Source: Sphingobacteriales bacterium
GTDB lineage: Bacteria > Bacteroidota > Bacteroidia > Sphingobacteriales > Sphingobacteriaceae
Assembly: GCA_044376465.1 (NCBI GenBank)
Contig: JBILKW010000001.1
Location: forward strand, 1 to 29,837
Length of the DNA stretch: 29,837 bases
Direction: 5' to 3'
Shown: positions 22,181 to 29,195 of the stretch, one piece after another
How positions within the stretch are numbered: the first letter of the stretch is position 1
Layout: each line of letters opens with the position of its first letter
Made by a program: the position numbers and the translations under genes
The notes under the pieces: generated by a model
The model's input: the letters and a program-made list of their open reading frames with translations, nothing else
What the model was told of the DNA's origin: nothing
The model's database searches: none

Positions 22181-23269
22181 ATGACAACATCTATAAAATC
22201 AGACCAGTTAAATACTTGGTTAGACTCTAATTTAAAGACCTTTATAATTGCAGGCCCATGCAGTGTAGAATCTGAAGAACAGATTAACAAAACGGCAGAG
22301 GGATTAGCAGCCATTCAAGTTCCGGTGTTAAGAGGCGGAATTTGGAAACCTCGTACTCGCCCAGGCTCCTTTACTGGTATAGGAAATGTAGGGATTCAAT
22401 GGTTAGCTGATGCTGCAAGAGCACATGGCATGAAGAGTGCGGTGGAAGTGGCTAATGCCAAACATGTTGAAGATTGTTTAAAAGCAGGGATCGATATATT
22501 TTGGATAGGTGCAAGATCAACCGTTAGCCCATTTGTAGTACAAGAAATTGCCGATGCCCTTAAAGGCGTAAACATTCCGGTAATGGTAAAAAATCCAATC
22601 AACCCCGACATAGAGTTGTGGATTGGAGCAATAGAACGTATACACAATGCTGGCATTAATAAAATTGCAGCCATACACAGAGGGTTCTCTCAATATGAAA
22701 AAAATACGTATCGTAATACTCCCAATTGGAACATCCCATTAGAATTGAAACGCCTCATTCCAAACTTACCTGTAATTTGCGACCCTAGCCATATATGTGG
22801 AAGCATAGAACTAATTCCACACGTAAGTCAAAAAGCAATGGATTTAAATTTGGATGGATTAATGATTGAAGCACATTATAATCCAAGTTTAGCATTGAGC
22901 GATAGGGATCAACAACTTACTTCGTCAGCTGTTTCTGATTTAATTAAAAATTTAATTATTAGGAACACCGAATCAGAAAACGCAGAATTTAGAGACCAAT
23001 TGGTTCGCTTAAGAACAGACATCGATAAGATAGATTACGAAGTATTAGAACTCCTAGCATCTAGGTCTAAATTGGTTAATGAAATTGGCTTGTATAAAAA
23101 AGAAAATAACATCACCATTTTTCAACCCGAGCGCTGGTCGGAAATAGTGAATACCAGAAAAAAATACGGAAAAGAAATTCACCTTTCTGAAGAAATGATA
23201 TTAGATTTGGTTAAATTGATTCACCGTGAATCTATTTCTGTACAAACTAAAGTAATGCAAGATGAATGA
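22181..23269 (+). CDS. Bifunctional DAHP synthase (type I-beta-like) with C-terminal chorismate mutase
   Basis: 'IAGPCSVE', 'WKPRTRPGSF', 'IGARST', 'VKNPIN', 'IHRGF', 'DPSH', 'GLMIEAH'. C-terminal AroQ-like 'LVRLRTDIDKIDYEVLELLASR'. Confidence 0.92.
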   Translation: MTTSIKSDQLNTWLDSNLKTFIIAGPCSVESEEQINKTAEGLAAIQVPVLRGGIWKPRTRPGSFTGIGNVGIQWLADAARAHGMKSAVEVANAKHVEDCLKAGIDIFWIGARSTVSPFVVQEIADALKGVNIPVMVKNPINPDIELWIGAIERIHNAGINKIAAIHRGFSQYEKNTYRNTPNWNIPLELKRLIPNLPVICDPSHICGSIELIPHVSQKAMDLNLDGLMIEAHYNPSLALSDRDQQLTSSAVSDLIKNLIIRNTESENAEFRDQLVRLRTDIDKIDYEVLELLASRSKLVNEIGLYKKENNITIFQPERWSEIVNTRKKYGKEIHLSEEMILDLVKLIHRESISVQTKVMQDE

Positions 23270-24338
23270 TATTAGAAGCAGTTTTGGATACGATATATTT
23301 ATTGAAGACTCCATTGCATCTTTAGACACTTGGTTAGAAACTCAACAATACTCTAAAGTAGCAATACTTGGAGATACTCACACATTAGAAGTTTGCTTGC
23401 CCTATTTAAATTTATATTCTAAGCACAGCTCACAATATGATTTAATAGAAATTGACCCCGGTGAAGATAATAAAAACATTGATATCTGTATCGGAGTGTG
23501 GAGCATGATGCAAGAGTTTGGTTTGGATCGCAAATCATTACTCATAAATCTAGGAGGTGGAGTAATTACAGACATGGGTGGATTTGCAGCATCTACTTAC
23601 ATGCGAGGTATTGATTTTATTAATATTCCCACTACTCTACTTGCAATGGTAGATGCAAGTATTGGCGGAAAAACAGGGTTAGATTTACAGAATTATAAAA
23701 ATCATTTAGGTACCTTTCATCATCCAAAAGCAATTTTTATTATCCCCGAATTTCTCAGCACCTTACATGAATTAGAAATTAAATCGGGTTTTGCAGAAGT
23801 AATTAAACACGGCTTAATTGCCGACCATTTACATTTAAGAGATGCCATTAGCTTTTTAGAAAATGGAGAAATTGGACTAGAAGTTTTAATACCTCAAAGT
23901 GTAAAAATAAAATTAGCCATTGTAGAAAAAGATCCGTTTGAAAAAGACATTCGAAAGGCATTAAATTTTGGACATACCGTTGGTCATGCTATAGAAAGCT
24001 ACTATTTAAACAAAGGCAAACTTATTATGCATGGTAGCGCCATTGCATGTGGAATGATGGTGGAGTCTTTTTTAAGTGTTAGCAAATGCAAAATGCCTGA
24101 AACAGATTTAAAATATATTTTAGAAATAATTCCCAACTATTTAGAACCGGCAAAACTAAATGAAGAAATGATTTTAGATGTAATAGAGTTAATGCGAAAA
24201 GATAAAAAGAATGAATCGTCGGAAATTAAATTTTCATTATTGAGTGCCATTGCTAGCCCTAGTTTAAACATAAGATGTTCGGAGGAAGAAATATCGGAAG
24301 CACTTGTAAAATGCATTCACTATTTTAATTTTAAATGA
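23262..24338 (+). CDS. aroB: 3-dehydroquinate synthase
   Basis: 'NLGGGVITDMGGFAASTYMRGI', 'PTTLLAMVDASIGGKTG', 'GFAEVIKHG', 'LNFGHTVGHAIE', 'DKKN'. Overlaps the upstream stop by 8 nt. Confidence 0.96.
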   Translation: MNDIRSSFGYDIFIEDSIASLDTWLETQQYSKVAILGDTHTLEVCLPYLNLYSKHSSQYDLIEIDPGEDNKNIDICIGVWSMMQEFGLDRKSLLINLGGGVITDMGGFAASTYMRGIDFINIPTTLLAMVDASIGGKTGLDLQNYKNHLGTFHHPKAIFIIPEFLSTLHELEIKSGFAEVIKHGLIADHLHLRDAISFLENGEIGLEVLIPQSVKIKLAIVEKDPFEKDIRKALNFGHTVGHAIESYYLNKGKLIMHGSAIACGMMVESFLSVSKCKMPETDLKYILEIIPNYLEPAKLNEEMILDVIELMRKDKKNESSEIKFSLLSAIASPSLNIRCSEEEISEALVKCIHYFNFK

Positions 24339-25546
24339 GAATACTAAAACCAGCAACATTTACTAGTACAGAAATTATATTACCTGGTTCTAAGAGCGAG
24401 TCGAACAGAGCATTAATTATAAAAGCGCTCTGCGAAGATGAAATTACGATTCAGAATTTATCCAACTCAGACGATACAAAAATTATTGCCGATGCATTAA
24501 ACACTAAACAATCTGTAATAGACTGTGGGCAATCTGGCGCAGCCTTACGGTTTTTGTGTGCTTATTTTTCGACTATTAAAAACAATACCGTAATCTTAAC
24601 AGGTTCTCAGCGATTAAAAGAACGCCCCTTAAAAATATTAATTGATGCTTTAACAGAATTAGGTGCAGAAATAGAGTATATAGAAAAAGTAGGTTATGCA
24701 CCCATAAAAATTAAAGGGAGAGAATTAGTTTCTCATAAAGCGATTAATATACAAGCAAATATTAGCAGCCAATTTATTTCGGCCTTGTTGATGATTGCAC
24801 CAAAAGTGAAAAACGGATTACAATTACATTTAGAAAACGAACTAATTTCTGCACCCTATTTAAAAATGACGATGCAGATGATGCATGATGCAAAAATTCA
24901 CATCATAGAAAACGAAAATAGCATTATCATTCCGGAGCAAGAATATCAGGCTTGCAACATTAACATTGAAGCAGATTGGAGTGCTGCTTCATACTGGTAC
25001 GCCTTGGTTTCATTAGGAATTCCGGAGATAATATTAAAAAGTTTGCATAAAAATAGTTTACAAGGAGATGCAATTATTGCTACTTGGATGAACGATTTTG
25101 GAGTGCAAACTAGTTTCGAAGATGGAGGCATTAAATTAACAAAAACATCTAGCATAAAACTACAAAAAGTATATAATTTTATAAATTGCCCCGACATAGC
25201 TCAAACGCTAATAGTATTGGCTGCATTACATTTGAAGGAAATAGTTTTTACTGGCATAGAAAGTTTAGCAATAAAAGAAACCGATAGAATTGAAGCCTTA
25301 AAAAATGAATTACAAAAAATAAATATAACATGGCACAGCAATTCAGATACTCATTTCATAAAAATAAATCAACAAGATTATACAAGGGCAGTACACATAA
25401 ATACTTACCACGACCATAGAATGGCCATGGCATTTACAATGCTAGCCATGAAGTTTGATGAACTATACATTGACGATAAAGAAGTAGTAAACAAATCGTA
25501 TCCGAATTTTTGGATAGATTTAACAAAAATGGGATTTAGAATTTAG
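24335..25546 (+). CDS. aroA: 3-phosphoshikimate 1-carboxyvinyltransferase (EPSP synthase)
   Basis: 'PGSKSESNR', 'RLKERP', 'SSQFISALLM', 'CPDIAQT', 'IKETDRI', 'HDHRMAMAF', 'KSYPNFW'. ATGA overlap with aroB. Confidence 0.95.
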   Translation: MRILKPATFTSTEIILPGSKSESNRALIIKALCEDEITIQNLSNSDDTKIIADALNTKQSVIDCGQSGAALRFLCAYFSTIKNNTVILTGSQRLKERPLKILIDALTELGAEIEYIEKVGYAPIKIKGRELVSHKAINIQANISSQFISALLMIAPKVKNGLQLHLENELISAPYLKMTMQMMHDAKIHIIENENSIIIPEQEYQACNINIEADWSAASYWYALVSLGIPEIILKSLHKNSLQGDAIIATWMNDFGVQTSFEDGGIKLTKTSSIKLQKVYNFINCPDIAQTLIVLAALHLKEIVFTGIESLAIKETDRIEALKNELQKINITWHSNSDTHFIKINQQDYTRAVHINTYHDHRMAMAFTMLAMKFDELYIDDKEVVNKSYPNFWIDLTKMGFRI

Positions 25547-25576
25547 ATATTAGAATTTAGAATTTAGAATTTGTAA
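25535..25576 (+). repeat. Direct heptamer array at the aroA-aroC junction
   Basis: TTTAGAA, TTTAGAT, ATTAGAA, TTTAGAA, TTTAGAA, TTTGTAA in phase. The first two units encode the last codons (F-R-I) and the TAG of aroA. Confidence 0.88.
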
Positions 25577-25578
25577 AC

Positions 25579-26631
25579 ATGGCAGGAAATACATTCGGAG
25601 AAAAATTTAAAATAAGCACCTTCGGCGAATCGCACGGAGCGGCCATAGGTGTAGTAATAGATGGATGCCCTGCAGGCATAGTACTCGATTTAAAAAAAAT
25701 ACAACAGGAACTTAATCGCAGAAAACCAGGCCAATCTTCTATCACCACTAGTAGAGCAGAAGAAGATGAATTCGAAATTTTATCTGGAATTTTTGAGGGT
25801 AAAACCTTGGGAACACCGATCGCCATTATTGTTCGCAATACAAATGCGAAACCAACAGATTACGATTATTTAAAAGATGCTTATCGCCCGTCGCATGCAG
25901 ATTATACGTATGAGATGAAATATGGAATTCGCGATCATCGTGGTGGCGGACGATCTTCTGCACGTGAAACCATTGCCAGGGTTGCGGCTGGAGCCATAGC
26001 AAAACAGCTACTAGCAAAAGAGGGAATCGAAATTTCGGCATTTGTTAAACAAGTTGGAGAAATAAAAGTAGAGAAACATTATACCGAATTAGATTTAAGT
26101 AATACGGATGATAACATTGTTCGTTGCCCAGATGCCTCAACGGCACAAAAAATGATTGAAGCCATAGAACACGTAAAAAAAGATGGCGATACATTAGGCG
26201 GCGTTATACAATGTGTAATTAAAAATGTACCGGCCGGTTTAGGCGAACCAGTATTCGATAAATTACAGGCCTTGCTTGCTCATGCCATGATGAGTATTAA
26301 TGCCGTGCATGGTTTCGAATATGGATCGGGATTTGCAGGTGCTGCTAAAAAAGGTTCGGAGAATAACGATGAATGGGAAAATGTTGAGGGCAAGATACGC
26401 GCCAAAACAAATAATGCCGGTGGTATTTTAGGTGGTATAAGTACCGGAGAAGATATTTACTTCAACGTTGCCTTTAAACCCGTAGCTACTATTTTAAAAT
26501 CTCAACAAAGCGTAAATACCAAAGGCGAAGAAATAAAATTACAAAATGAAGGCAGACACGATCCTTGTGTATTACCTAGAGCAGTACCTATCGTGGAAGC
26601 TATGGCAGCTTTAGTAATTTTGAATTGTTAA
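25579..26631 (+). CDS. aroC: Chorismate synthase, possibly lacking the last ~10 residues
   Basis: 'TFGESHG', 'RRKPGQ', 'RPSHAD', '[11 protein letters not shown]', '[11 protein letters not shown]', 'FKPVATI', '[18 protein letters not shown]'. It ends abruptly at 'ALVILNC'. Confidence 0.95.
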
Positions 26632-26706
26632 TTGTCAATTGTCAATTAAGCAATGTTGTAACTGTAATGCTTAATTCACAATTGACAATTCACAATTGAC
26701 AATTTA
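26616..26706. repeat. Long palindrome built from heptamers at the aroC / E1 convergent junction
   Basis: Left units TGAATTG, TTAATTG, TCAATTG, TCAATTA, then AGCA. Right side TGCT, then TAATTCA, CAATTGA, CAATTCA, CAATTGA, CAATTTA. 26616-26652 pairs with 26668-26704 with 4 mismatches in 37. Confidence 0.9.
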
Positions 26707-29127
26707 TAACGGGAATCTACTCGGATCTGCTTCGTGCATCATTTCATAAATGCATTCTACTACATCATCGGCACTTGGTTTAGAGAAATAATCTCCATCG
26801 GTACCGTAGGCTGGTCTGTGAGCCTTTGCAGTTAAGGTTCTTGGAGCTGCATCTAAATGGTAATATCCTTTTTGTTCTTCCAACACTTGTTGCATCATGT
26901 ATGAACTTGCTCCTCCTGGAACATCTTCGTCGAAGAACAATACCTTATTTGTTTTCTTTAATGAATCAACAATGTGGTGATGTATATCAAAAGGTAATAA
27001 GGATTGCACATCAATTAACTCAACAGAAATACCCATTTCATTTAGCTCCAAAATTGCTTCTTGTGCAACTCGGCAACACGAACCGTAGGTTACCAAGGTA
27101 ACATCATTGCCTTCAACTAAAATTTCTGGATGGCCTAATGGTAAGGTAAACTCGCCAATATTATCTGGCAATGCTTCTTTCAATCGGTAGCCATTTAAGC
27201 ATTCTATTACTAATGCAGGTTCATCTGCTTTCAACAATGTATTGTAAAAACCTGCAGCTTGTGTCATGTTTCTTGGTACTAACACATGTATGCCTCGCAA
27301 CGCATGTAAAATCATTCCAATAGGCGAACCCGAATGCCAAATTCCTTCTAATCGGTGTCCTCTGGTTCTTATAATTAACGGTGCTTTTTGTCCGGCTTTA
27401 GTTCTGTATGATAAGGAAGCCAAATCATCACTCAAGGTTTGCAAACCGTATAATAGATAATCTAAATATTGTATTTCTGCAATAGGTCTAAGGCCACGCA
27501 TTGCCAAACCTATACCCTGCCCTATAATGGTAGCTTCTCTAATTCCTGTATCAGAAATTCTAACCTCTCCATATTTTTCTTGTAAGCCAGCAAAGCCTTG
27601 GTTTACGTCACCAATTCTACCAACATCTTCGCCAAAAGCTAATACACGCGGATCTCTGGCAAATGCTGCATCAAAACAAGCTTGTAAAATTTCTCTACCA
27701 TCCAACTGTTTTGCATCTTCGGAGTATTGTGCTTTTGTTTCTAAAATGTTCAATGCCGAATGTTCGGTATCGGTAAATAAATAGGAATTATAACGATCGT
27801 AGTTTTGGCTGTTGTAATGGTTCAACCAAATCTGTAAATCTCTTCTTGCCGCAGTATCTTCTGCACGTGTTAAGCGTAATGATTTACGCACTGCCACCAA
27901 AATATCTTTACGTATGGCATCAACCGTATTGCGTAAGTTTTGTATTAAATTAGTTATTTCTGATGATGCTGCCGATGTTGCGGCTAATTGCTCTAACATT
28001 GTGCATACCTCTGCAATCTCCGTTTTTATTGGCTGATTGAAAGCTTCCCATACTTCTTTTTGACAAGCGCGTACATATCTTTTTGCTTCTTGTTCTATCT
28101 CATCTAATTCTTCTGCAGTAGCAATGGCACTAGAAATCATCCAATCGCGCATTTGTTTTATACAATCAAATTCCATTTCCCATTCTAAACGCTCCTTCGA
28201 CTTGTAACGCTCGTGCGAACCCGATGTAGAGTGGCCTTGTGGTTGAGTTAGCTCTTGCACATGTATCATAACCGGAACGTGCTGCTCTCTACAAATTTTA
28301 ATCGCTTTCTCATAGGTATCGCAAAGTGCTGCATAATCCCAACCGTTCACTCTGTAAATTTCGAATCCATCTCCTTTTTCATCGCGTTGGAATCCTTTTA
28401 AAATTTCCGAAATATTTTCTTTGGTAGTTTGGTATTTAGCATGTACAGAAATTCCATAGCCATCATCCCAAACACTAATAGCCATAGGTATTTGCAACAC
28501 ACCGGCTGCATTAATGGCCTCAAAAAAATGGCCTTCGGAAGTGCTCGCATTCCCTATGGTTCCAAACGCTACTTCGTTTCCGTTTAGGGAGAAATTACTT
28601 AAGTGTGCTAGCTCCGTATTGTTTCTGTATAATTTTGATGCTTGAGCTAAACCCACTAGCCTTGGCATTTGCCCCGCTGTTGGAGAAATATCTGCCGATG
28701 AATTTTTCATGGCCGTTAACTCTTTCCAAGATCCTTGTTCATCTAAACTACGCGTTCCAAAATGTCCGTTCATGCTTCTGCCTGCCGAACACGGTTCTGC
28801 TTGCACATCGGGCATTGCATATAATTGTGCGAAAAACTCTTTCACATTACTCATGCCCGTTGCAAACATAAACGTTTGGTCGCGGTAATATCCTGATCTA
28901 AAATCTCCATCGCGAAAAACTTTAGCCATCGCAATTTGAGCAATCTCCTTACCATCACCAAAAATTCCAAATTTAGCCTTGCCAGTAAGTACTTCTTTTC
29001 TACCCAGCAAACTTGCTTGGCGACTTTCGTTAGCTACTTTAAAATCGTTTTTTACAACTTCTTTGAAATCTTCGAAACTTAAATTACCAGTAGAAGCTGC
29101 GACTTGCTCTTTGTTATTTGCTGACAT
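26704..29127 (-). CDS. Fused alpha/beta E1 component of a 2-oxoacid dehydrogenase (probably branched-chain type)
   Basis: 'GKAKFGIFGDGKE', 'RSGYYRDQT', TPP-region 'FGTIGNASTSEGHFFEAINAAG', 'GHSTSGSHERYK', and beta-part motifs 'FGEDVGRIGDVNQG', 'DTGIREATIIG', 'EIQYLDY'. Start reassigned to ATG 29127 (MSANN). Confidence 0.9.
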   Translation of the reverse strand: MSANNKEQVAASTGNLSFEDFKEVVKNDFKVANESRQASLLGRKEVLTGKAKFGIFGDGKEIAQIAMAKVFRDGDFRSGYYRDQTFMFATGMSNVKEFFAQLYAMPDVQAEPCSAGRSMNGHFGTRSLDEQGSWKELTAMKNSSADISPTAGQMPRLVGLAQASKLYRNNTELAHLSNFSLNGNEVAFGTIGNASTSEGHFFEAINAAGVLQIPMAISVWDDGYGISVHAKYQTTKENISEILKGFQRDEKGDGFEIYRVNGWDYAALCDTYEKAIKICREQHVPVMIHVQELTQPQGHSTSGSHERYKSKERLEWEMEFDCIKQMRDWMISSAIATAEELDEIEQEAKRYVRACQKEVWEAFNQPIKTEIAEVCTMLEQLAATSAASSEITNLIQNLRNTVDAIRKDILVAVRKSLRLTRAEDTAARRDLQIWLNHYNSQNYDRYNSYLFTDTEHSALNILETKAQYSEDAKQLDGREILQACFDAAFARDPRVLAFGEDVGRIGDVNQGFAGLQEKYGEVRISDTGIREATIIGQGIGLAMRGLRPIAEIQYLDYLLYGLQTLSDDLASLSYRTKAGQKAPLIIRTRGHRLEGIWHSGSPIGMILHALRGIHVLVPRNMTQAAGFYNTLLKADEPALVIECLNGYRLKEALPDNIGEFTLPLGHPEILVEGNDVTLVTYGSCCRVAQEAILELNEMGISVELIDVQSLLPFDIHHHIVDSLKKTNKVLFFDEDVPGGASSYMMQQVLEEQKGYYHLDAAPRTLTAKAHRPAYGTDGDYFSKPSADDVVECIYEMMHEADPSRFPL

Positions 29128-29150
29128 AAACGAGATATAAGGATGTGCGG

Positions 29151-29158
29151 CAAAAATA
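29151..29158 (-). promoter_or_regulatory. -7 element (TATTTTTG) for the E1 gene
   Basis: Exact TAnnTTTG match 23 nt upstream of ATG 29127, lying inside the ORF track's spurious N-terminal extension. Confidence 0.6.
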
Positions 29159-29195
29159 AGGAATCCGACGCAGACCAAGAAAAATTAATTTTCGC

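Follow-up and report, generated by a model that had tools for sequence, protein, structure and literature searches.

Heptamer arrays code for a shortened C-terminus of chorismate synthase in a Sphingobacteriales genome

Dispersed families of tandem heptanucleotides within a single bacterial genome have been known for some time, the short tandemly repeated repetitive (STRR) heptamers of cyanobacteria being reportedly described by Mazel et al. in 1990. The arrays analyzed here resemble them in their dispersion and tandem organization, but belong to a different phylum and are built from different units. To our knowledge, no recoding of protein C-termini has been reported for STRR elements. They are mentioned, as the Calothrix heptanucleotides, in a study of the GGGAATC heptamers of Xanthomonas and the GGGGA(C/T)T heptamers of Nostoc (Rehm et al. 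2015, PMC4692102), which are over-represented and mostly intergenic, occur within 50 bp of stop codons with some of them overlapping the stop, and frequently form convergent inverted pairs with the potential to fold into stem-loops. An earlier survey of long simple sequence repeats (Mrazek et al. 2007) is cited in that study and in PMC4679880. The latter (MacGregor 2015) reports TAACTGA direct repeats in marine Beggiatoaceae, cyanobacteria and some Bacteroidetes, with long arrays in some of the latter. TAACTGA repeats contain stops in all three frames, so that open reading frames necessarily end in them, and 13 ORF stops were found overlapped by repeats (PMC4679880).

The genome considered here (G000; 2.16 Mb, 34.8% G+C, 240 contigs), whose nearest relatives are MAGs of uncultured freshwater-lake bacteria carrying the label Sphingobacteriales or Bacteroidota, contains 207 arrays of period 7 and 172 of period 8 at a TRF score of at least 40, versus none of either period at the same score in a third-order Markov simulation of this genome used as chance control. 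They are mostly located at the 3' ends of genes: of the 379, 250 fall between genes, 95 contain or touch the stop codon of an ORF of 150 aa or more, and only 11 overlap a 5' end; some form direct-only runs or stand just upstream of start codons. Sixty-one inverted array pairs were identified. Stop triplets are present on both strands in the units of 48% of the arrays, against 20-24% for random genomic 7-8-mers. Moreover, since a unit of 7 or 8 nt cycles through all three frames and AATTGTN produces TAA or TGA if N is T, A or G, an ORF entering such an array ends within it. The arrays thus share with the Xanthomonas and Nostoc repeats their tandem 7-nt organization, over-representation, intergenic or stop-adjacent position and inverted pairing, but their units are rich in A+T and do not form quadruplexes, several unrelated families with units of 7 and 8 nt exist side by side, and an effect on the C-terminus of a conserved enzyme can be traced across species. 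They share with TAACTGA repeats the property of being heptamers whose stops end ORFs; the latter are however mainly found just upstream of starts, in direct orientation and with a single unit sequence, whereas the present arrays are chiefly found at 3' ends, frequently come in inverted orientation and comprise many types of unit. Contigs of this assembly often start or end in arrays (e.g. C39:2-44, C150:14-49, C26:73-105 and C74:108-141), and the arrays are therefore probably the cause of much of its fragmentation.

The window, i.e. the whole analyzed stretch of 29,837 nucleotides corresponding to contig C139 of this genome, carries aroA and aroC of an aroB-aroA-aroC cluster (Table 1), aroB being found directly upstream of aroA on an independent contig of the same locus. 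AroC matches the chorismate synthase profile PF01264 with E = 9.9e-146 over positions 1-324 of 327, including the GRHDPC motif, so that what is missing is confined to the final 3 positions of the profile and the variable tail; matches to chorismate synthases of the PDB reach E-values down to 1e-111. The next gene, encoding a fused E1 component, is convergent with aroC and begins 72 nt past its stop. In G015, a member of a related genus (locus L029), the stop codons of aroC and E1 overlap, with no intergenic spacer.

Table 1. Coordinates of the features discussed in the text (positions in the window unless a contig is given)
Feature	Position	Strand	Basis or remark
aroA (EPSP synthase)	24335-25546	+	ORF list, Pfam; upstream gene of aroC in the aroB-aroA-aroC cluster
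ATTTAGA heptamer array	25534-25572	+	Reaches into aroA over its four terminal codons plus stop; 6 nt separate it from the aroC start
aroC (chorismate synthase), 350 aa	25579-26631	+	ORF list; Pfam PF01264; PDB matches
Hairpin left arm, AATTGTN heptamer array	26611-26652	+	Overlaps the last 7 codons of aroC
Putative junction of the ~0.49-kb deletion	26617-26628	+	Approximate within the repeat; L002 2542-2559 and L002 3033-3105 compared with the window
Array-coded aroC end	26623-26631	+	AAT (Asn349, in place of the conserved Asp), TGT (Cys350), TAA stop
Hairpin loop, 15 nt, without ORF	26653-26667	n/a	
Hairpin right arm, reverse-complement heptamers	26668-26709	+	Holds the stop and last codon of E1
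Fused E1 alpha/beta 2-oxoacid dehydrogenase component	26704-29178	-	Convergent with aroC; Pfam E1_dh, Transket_pyr, Transketolase_C
Array-bracketed PF05635 loci	C149:274-846, C6:11254-11839, C24:6725-7349, C101:3446-4117, C46:3270-3846, C164:7-590		

A hairpin with arms of 42 nt, 86% complementary, occupies the space between aroC and E1. TRF delineates a period-7 array at 26615-26647 in its left arm, with 3.6 copies over 26623-26647, and 4.6 copies in its right arm (26673-26704), in keeping with the three or more head-to-tail units that characterize LSSR/STRR-like arrays, and the corresponding RNA folds at -35.9 kcal/mol (z = -4.7), a stability reached by none of 200 shuffled sequences. A sequence-only reading of this DNA had placed the end of aroC in the left arm and the opposing stop of E1 in a heptamer unit, and both placements are correct. 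The codons TTG AAT TGT TAA (26620-26631) lie inside the left arm, AAT (Asn349) being the first codon of a heptamer unit, and TAAATTG, the outermost unit of the right arm, opens with the triplet that stops E1 (26704-26706, minus strand). Despite this array-coded stop, the E1 tail (HEADPSRFPL) is the same in the window and in the sister species G005, and lacks just 2 residues relative to G015 and G017 from other genera; a meaningful truncation of E1 was consequently rejected. The region 25400-27000 contains no intrinsic terminator, the stem being AT-rich and followed by no T-run on either strand, and the whole window gives no match to Rfam 15 at the gathering score. On the minus strand, an array unit at 26617-26645 contains TTGACA, which accounts for promoter-like sites obtained in the hairpin by a scan with the sigma-70 consensus; these sites most probably just reflect the unit sequence and have no meaning as Bacteroidota promoters.

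Comparison of the AroC C-terminus drew on 29 orthologues found in related genomes and on 120 cluster representatives. Counted after the G of GRHDPC, the window protein has 26 residues, versus 33-40 in all 23 orthologues from other genera, nearly all of which end in ...ALVLADHLLRNKxxxx. The sequence-only reading would have been contradicted by close array-free orthologues ending at the same position, and they do not: those of G007, G006, G002 and P0016 (L132) are full length, and every array-free orthologue runs on with D-(F/H)-L-L for 7-12 residues beyond the end of the window protein, the same-genus tails being ...DFLLLSNKN in G007 and G006 and ...DFLLLSK in G002. Conversely, the AroC of G005 (93% identical) and G004 (91% identical) end in ...VNCKL and ...VNCKW, respectively, while running into AATTGTA/AATGGTG units, and that of G001 ends in ...VDLFT at a TCGTTAG hairpin. 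Among the cluster representatives, 27 of 120 have tails of at most 29 residues, and 24 of these 27 carry Asn instead of Asp; the Asp is kept in all 96 representatives without an Asn tail, so the Asn is confined to the 24 with heptamer-coded tails. The tails NC, NCEL, NCKL, NCKW, NYEL, NAEL and NYQLLIVNC of these relatives are direct translations of consecutive heptamers. The 31 nt coding for D-F-L-L-L-S-N-K-N and the stop in G007 align with array units of G004, with homologous flanks on both sides; the sharing of alignment columns looks like a replacement in place rather than a simple insertion. These comparisons confirm that the AroC tail has been replaced by array-coded residues and shortened.

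The extent of the loss was evaluated on an AlphaFold2 model of a full-length orthologue (P0036; monomer, mean pLDDT 73.9, pTM 0.80), in which the last helix comprises residues 332-355. The window AroC is native through 348, residues 349-350 are recoded (Asp to Asn and Phe to Cys) and 351-357 are missing, so that about the last quarter of the predicted helix (~7 of 24 residues) would be recoded or missing. The conserved Asp is therefore lost as had been proposed, but the statement that the C-terminal helix was overwritten went too far. Asp349 is presumably not the catalytic Asp, which belongs to the RHD motif and is still present in the protein. A rescue of the tail by frameshift or readthrough was also considered and rejected, none of the three downstream reading frames offering a D-x-L-L continuation, in agreement with the earlier remark that no shifted frame restores it.

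Array-coded tails are neither unique to this gene nor to this event. In the same genome, a 308-aa protein (C227:1087-2013) and a 201-aa protein (C6:10665-11270) have the array-coded ends NCEL and SCEL, and their counterparts in sister species end in NCKL, NC, SCEL, KWVMGSE and others; these differences among species show the recoding of C-termini by arrays to be general in the genus. For AroC itself, a tree of 89 sequences with tails removed requires the tail state to have changed three times or more along well-supported branches, which makes a single origin of the Asn tail too simple. In particular, the full-length, array-free P0016 (L132) is sister to the NAEL-tailed P0008, a nested position implying either several origins of the Asn tail or the recovery of a full tail through recombination. 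A second lineage, P0045, has an NC tail at a different array of TnGTTnG type. In G013, a member of another genus (L007), a near-perfect hairpin built from different units supplies the tail GGFHAKSAE through its left arm; here too, and independently, a hairpin arm is translated into protein. The common boundary after ...ALV(I/L)(L/V) suggests either a limit of tolerance of the enzyme or an effect of microhomology.

Variation is also observed between conspecific strains, in the seventh-position bases of the aroC array and in the unit number of the aroA/aroC array. In the left arm of L092, two seventh positions are G where the window has T and C, which gives AAT TGT GAA TTG TGA and places the stop two codons further along (NCEL versus NC in the window), and the ATTTAGA array between aroA and aroC has exactly one 7-nt unit fewer in L092 and in G005 than in the window. 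The earlier description of the arrays as actively mutagenic can be upheld in a limited form only, since the changes between conspecific strains amount to a stop moved by two codons and a difference of one 7-nt unit.

The neighbourhood of aroC in sister species points to a further event. In G005, aroC (...VNCKL) is followed by a direct array and then by a cupin-like gene of 118 aa, which a hairpin separates from E1. The cupin-like gene (L002 2676-3032 in G005), which shows a weak match to Cupin_2 below the Pfam cut-off, directly follows aroC in the G004, G005, G006, G007, P0006 and P0016 genomes, and a search for it in G000 found none. The hairpin of the window is orthologous to that located between the cupin-like gene and E1 in G005, both being near-identical, loop included, with three substitutions and two extra right-arm units in the window. 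The sequence to the left of the junction corresponds to the aroC tail of G004 and G005, and that to the right to the left arm of the post-cupin hairpin of G005. About 0.49 kb including the cupin-like gene were thus apparently deleted between two AATTGTN arrays (L002 2542 to 3033), and on the simplest reading this deletion fused an already short aroC to the cupin/E1 hairpin, giving the present TAA. The palindrome now standing at the end of aroC would accordingly differ from the array that first cut the tail: the sequence-only reading was right that an array had entered coding DNA and shortened AroC, but had attributed this to a palindrome which was apparently brought there by the later deletion. 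The aroC-tail arrays of G005 (L002 2585-2620, starting with ctcgccccgaatgtag) and P0006 (L093 2590-2625, starting with gcttgccccgaatgtag) additionally contain a G+C-richer insert of ~40 nt, absent from that of G004, which may be another small repeat element.

Taken together, we propose with a probability of about 0.8 that an array replaced the aroC tail, that this was tolerated, and that an array-array deletion and continuing change followed. An AATTGTN/AATGGTN array would have replaced the last ~30 nt of aroC in the ancestor of G000, G004 and G005, where they had presumably coded for D-F-L-L-L-S-x-K-x and the stop, at the end of the last alpha-helix. Each 7-nt unit shifting the frame by one, the ORF would then stop within about three units, yielding the tails NC, NCEL or NCKL. 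The shortened enzyme would have been functional and under strong purifying selection since. Recombination or slippage between the aroC-tail array and the array behind the cupin-like gene would be the probable mechanism by which ~0.49 kb were lost and aroC was joined to the hairpin that precedes E1 in the sister species. Substitutions at the seventh position and gains or losses of single units would have continued thereafter.

Among the other explanations, those denying the truncation or its maintenance fare poorly. A collapse of the repeat or a mis-joining of contigs, leaving the true gene longer, would fit with the fragmentation of the assembly and its many contig ends in arrays, and had been named beforehand as the outcome that would overturn the claim. 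It is nevertheless practically negligible, as the identical 350-aa AroC is found on nine contigs, the hairpin DNA is base-identical in the independent ENA, JGI and Logan assemblies obtained from different samples, and the same aroC/hairpin layout occurs on a 2.34-Mb contig of a conspecific strain; this agreement makes misassembly very unlikely. That a short tail is ancestral to the lineage, or simply normal in it, the array abutting the gene without having replaced anything, is extremely improbable. The full-length tails of the genus, with 31-33 residues after the G of GRHDPC, are indeed 2-4 residues below the 35 usual in distant relatives, but they keep the D-(F/H)-L-L motif and further residues in all array-free orthologues and are homologous to the outgroup tails, which marks full length as ancestral, whereas the short forms finish in residues that translate heptamer units. 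An inactivation of the enzyme in a decaying gene, with aromatic compounds being imported, could be envisaged from the small size of the genome and from the loss of the conserved Asp and helix end. We consider it very improbable considering the pairwise dN/dS of 0.064-0.092 at dS 0.47-0.98 between the aroC of G000, G005 and G004, the lack of internal stops in aroC, the intact aroB and aroA alongside, and the presence of a chorismate-binding enzyme and, at 23009-23245 of the window, of a chorismate mutase domain. This low dN/dS shows that the shortened AroC has been kept under strong purifying selection since its truncation and, with the intact pathway context, suggests that it is functional. 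G000, G004 and G005 form one clade (support 100/99) and have the Asn-Cys tail in common, which, together with the low dN/dS, indicates an old and tolerated truncation rather than fresh damage and argues against a broken gene.

The other alternatives concern the deletion and the nature of the arrays. The hairpin could have been inserted or have grown between aroC and E1 without any deletion, the cupin-like gene being a separate insertion in the sister species. Such an arrangement is suggested by the aroC of G013, G015 and G017, from other genera, which are convergent on E1 with almost no spacer, and by the right-hand neighbour, which varies among relatives between E1 and a C1 peptidase. It is however unlikely, given that the cupin-like gene comes right after aroC in all six genomes listed above, that G000 is nested with G004 and G005, and that the loop and arms of the window hairpin match the cupin/E1 hairpin of G005 almost base for base. 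Another proposal, compatible with the account favoured here, is that the arrays are selected elements, such as hairpins ending transcripts from both directions where convergent genes are tightly packed, the replacement of the tail being a by-product of selection for this structure and not of a neutral spread of repeats. The predominant location of arrays at 3' ends, the 61 inverted pairs and the stability of the fold lend it some appeal, as do the overlapping stops of aroC and E1 in G015, a hairpin between such genes having to overlap coding DNA. The lack of a U-tract or any terminator-like site, the fast turnover of unit sequence and copy number, the occurrence of arrays that are direct-only or just upstream of start codons, and the absence of an Rfam family match speak against it, leaving it as a tentative possibility. 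It is more doubtful that the arrays, instead of being passive products of slippage, derive from a mobile hairpin cassette of S23p type, either as its arms or as forms without ORF, which would prefer gene 3' ends and bring a three-frame stop. The genome contains nine PF05635 genes (S23p, the 23S rRNA intervening-sequence protein family), six of which are bracketed by arrays of matching unit family, inverted where inspected, and the C149 cassette has AATTGTN arms like the aroC hairpin. PF05635 cassettes carry an ORF between their arms, whereas the 15-nt aroC/E1 loop holds no ORF and in particular no small one coding for a four-helix bundle. A descent of ORF-less hairpins from S23p cassettes may be envisaged. 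If this reading were true, the repeated replacement of AroC at the same codon would reflect a target or microhomology preference combined with the tolerance limit of the enzyme, and the arrays would constitute a natural C-terminal deletion scan over the proteome.

Repeats of this class, and their overlapping of stop codons, had already been published, and the current understanding is not overturned by the present analysis, in which the short AroC tail emerges as a tolerated side effect of such repeats. The AroC case is a clear instance, traced through a phylogeny, in which heptamer arrays between genes have remodelled both proteins and gene order: arrays recode and shorten C-termini and supply their stops, single base changes shift the stop, and the arrays apparently mediate the deletion of a whole gene. 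In these genomes, annotated tails such as -NCEL, -SCEL and -NCKL should be read as repeat-derived. Moreover, the natural AroC variants mark residue ~348 as the tolerated C-terminal limit of the enzyme, and indicate that the otherwise invariant Asp349 can be Asn, or precede almost anything.
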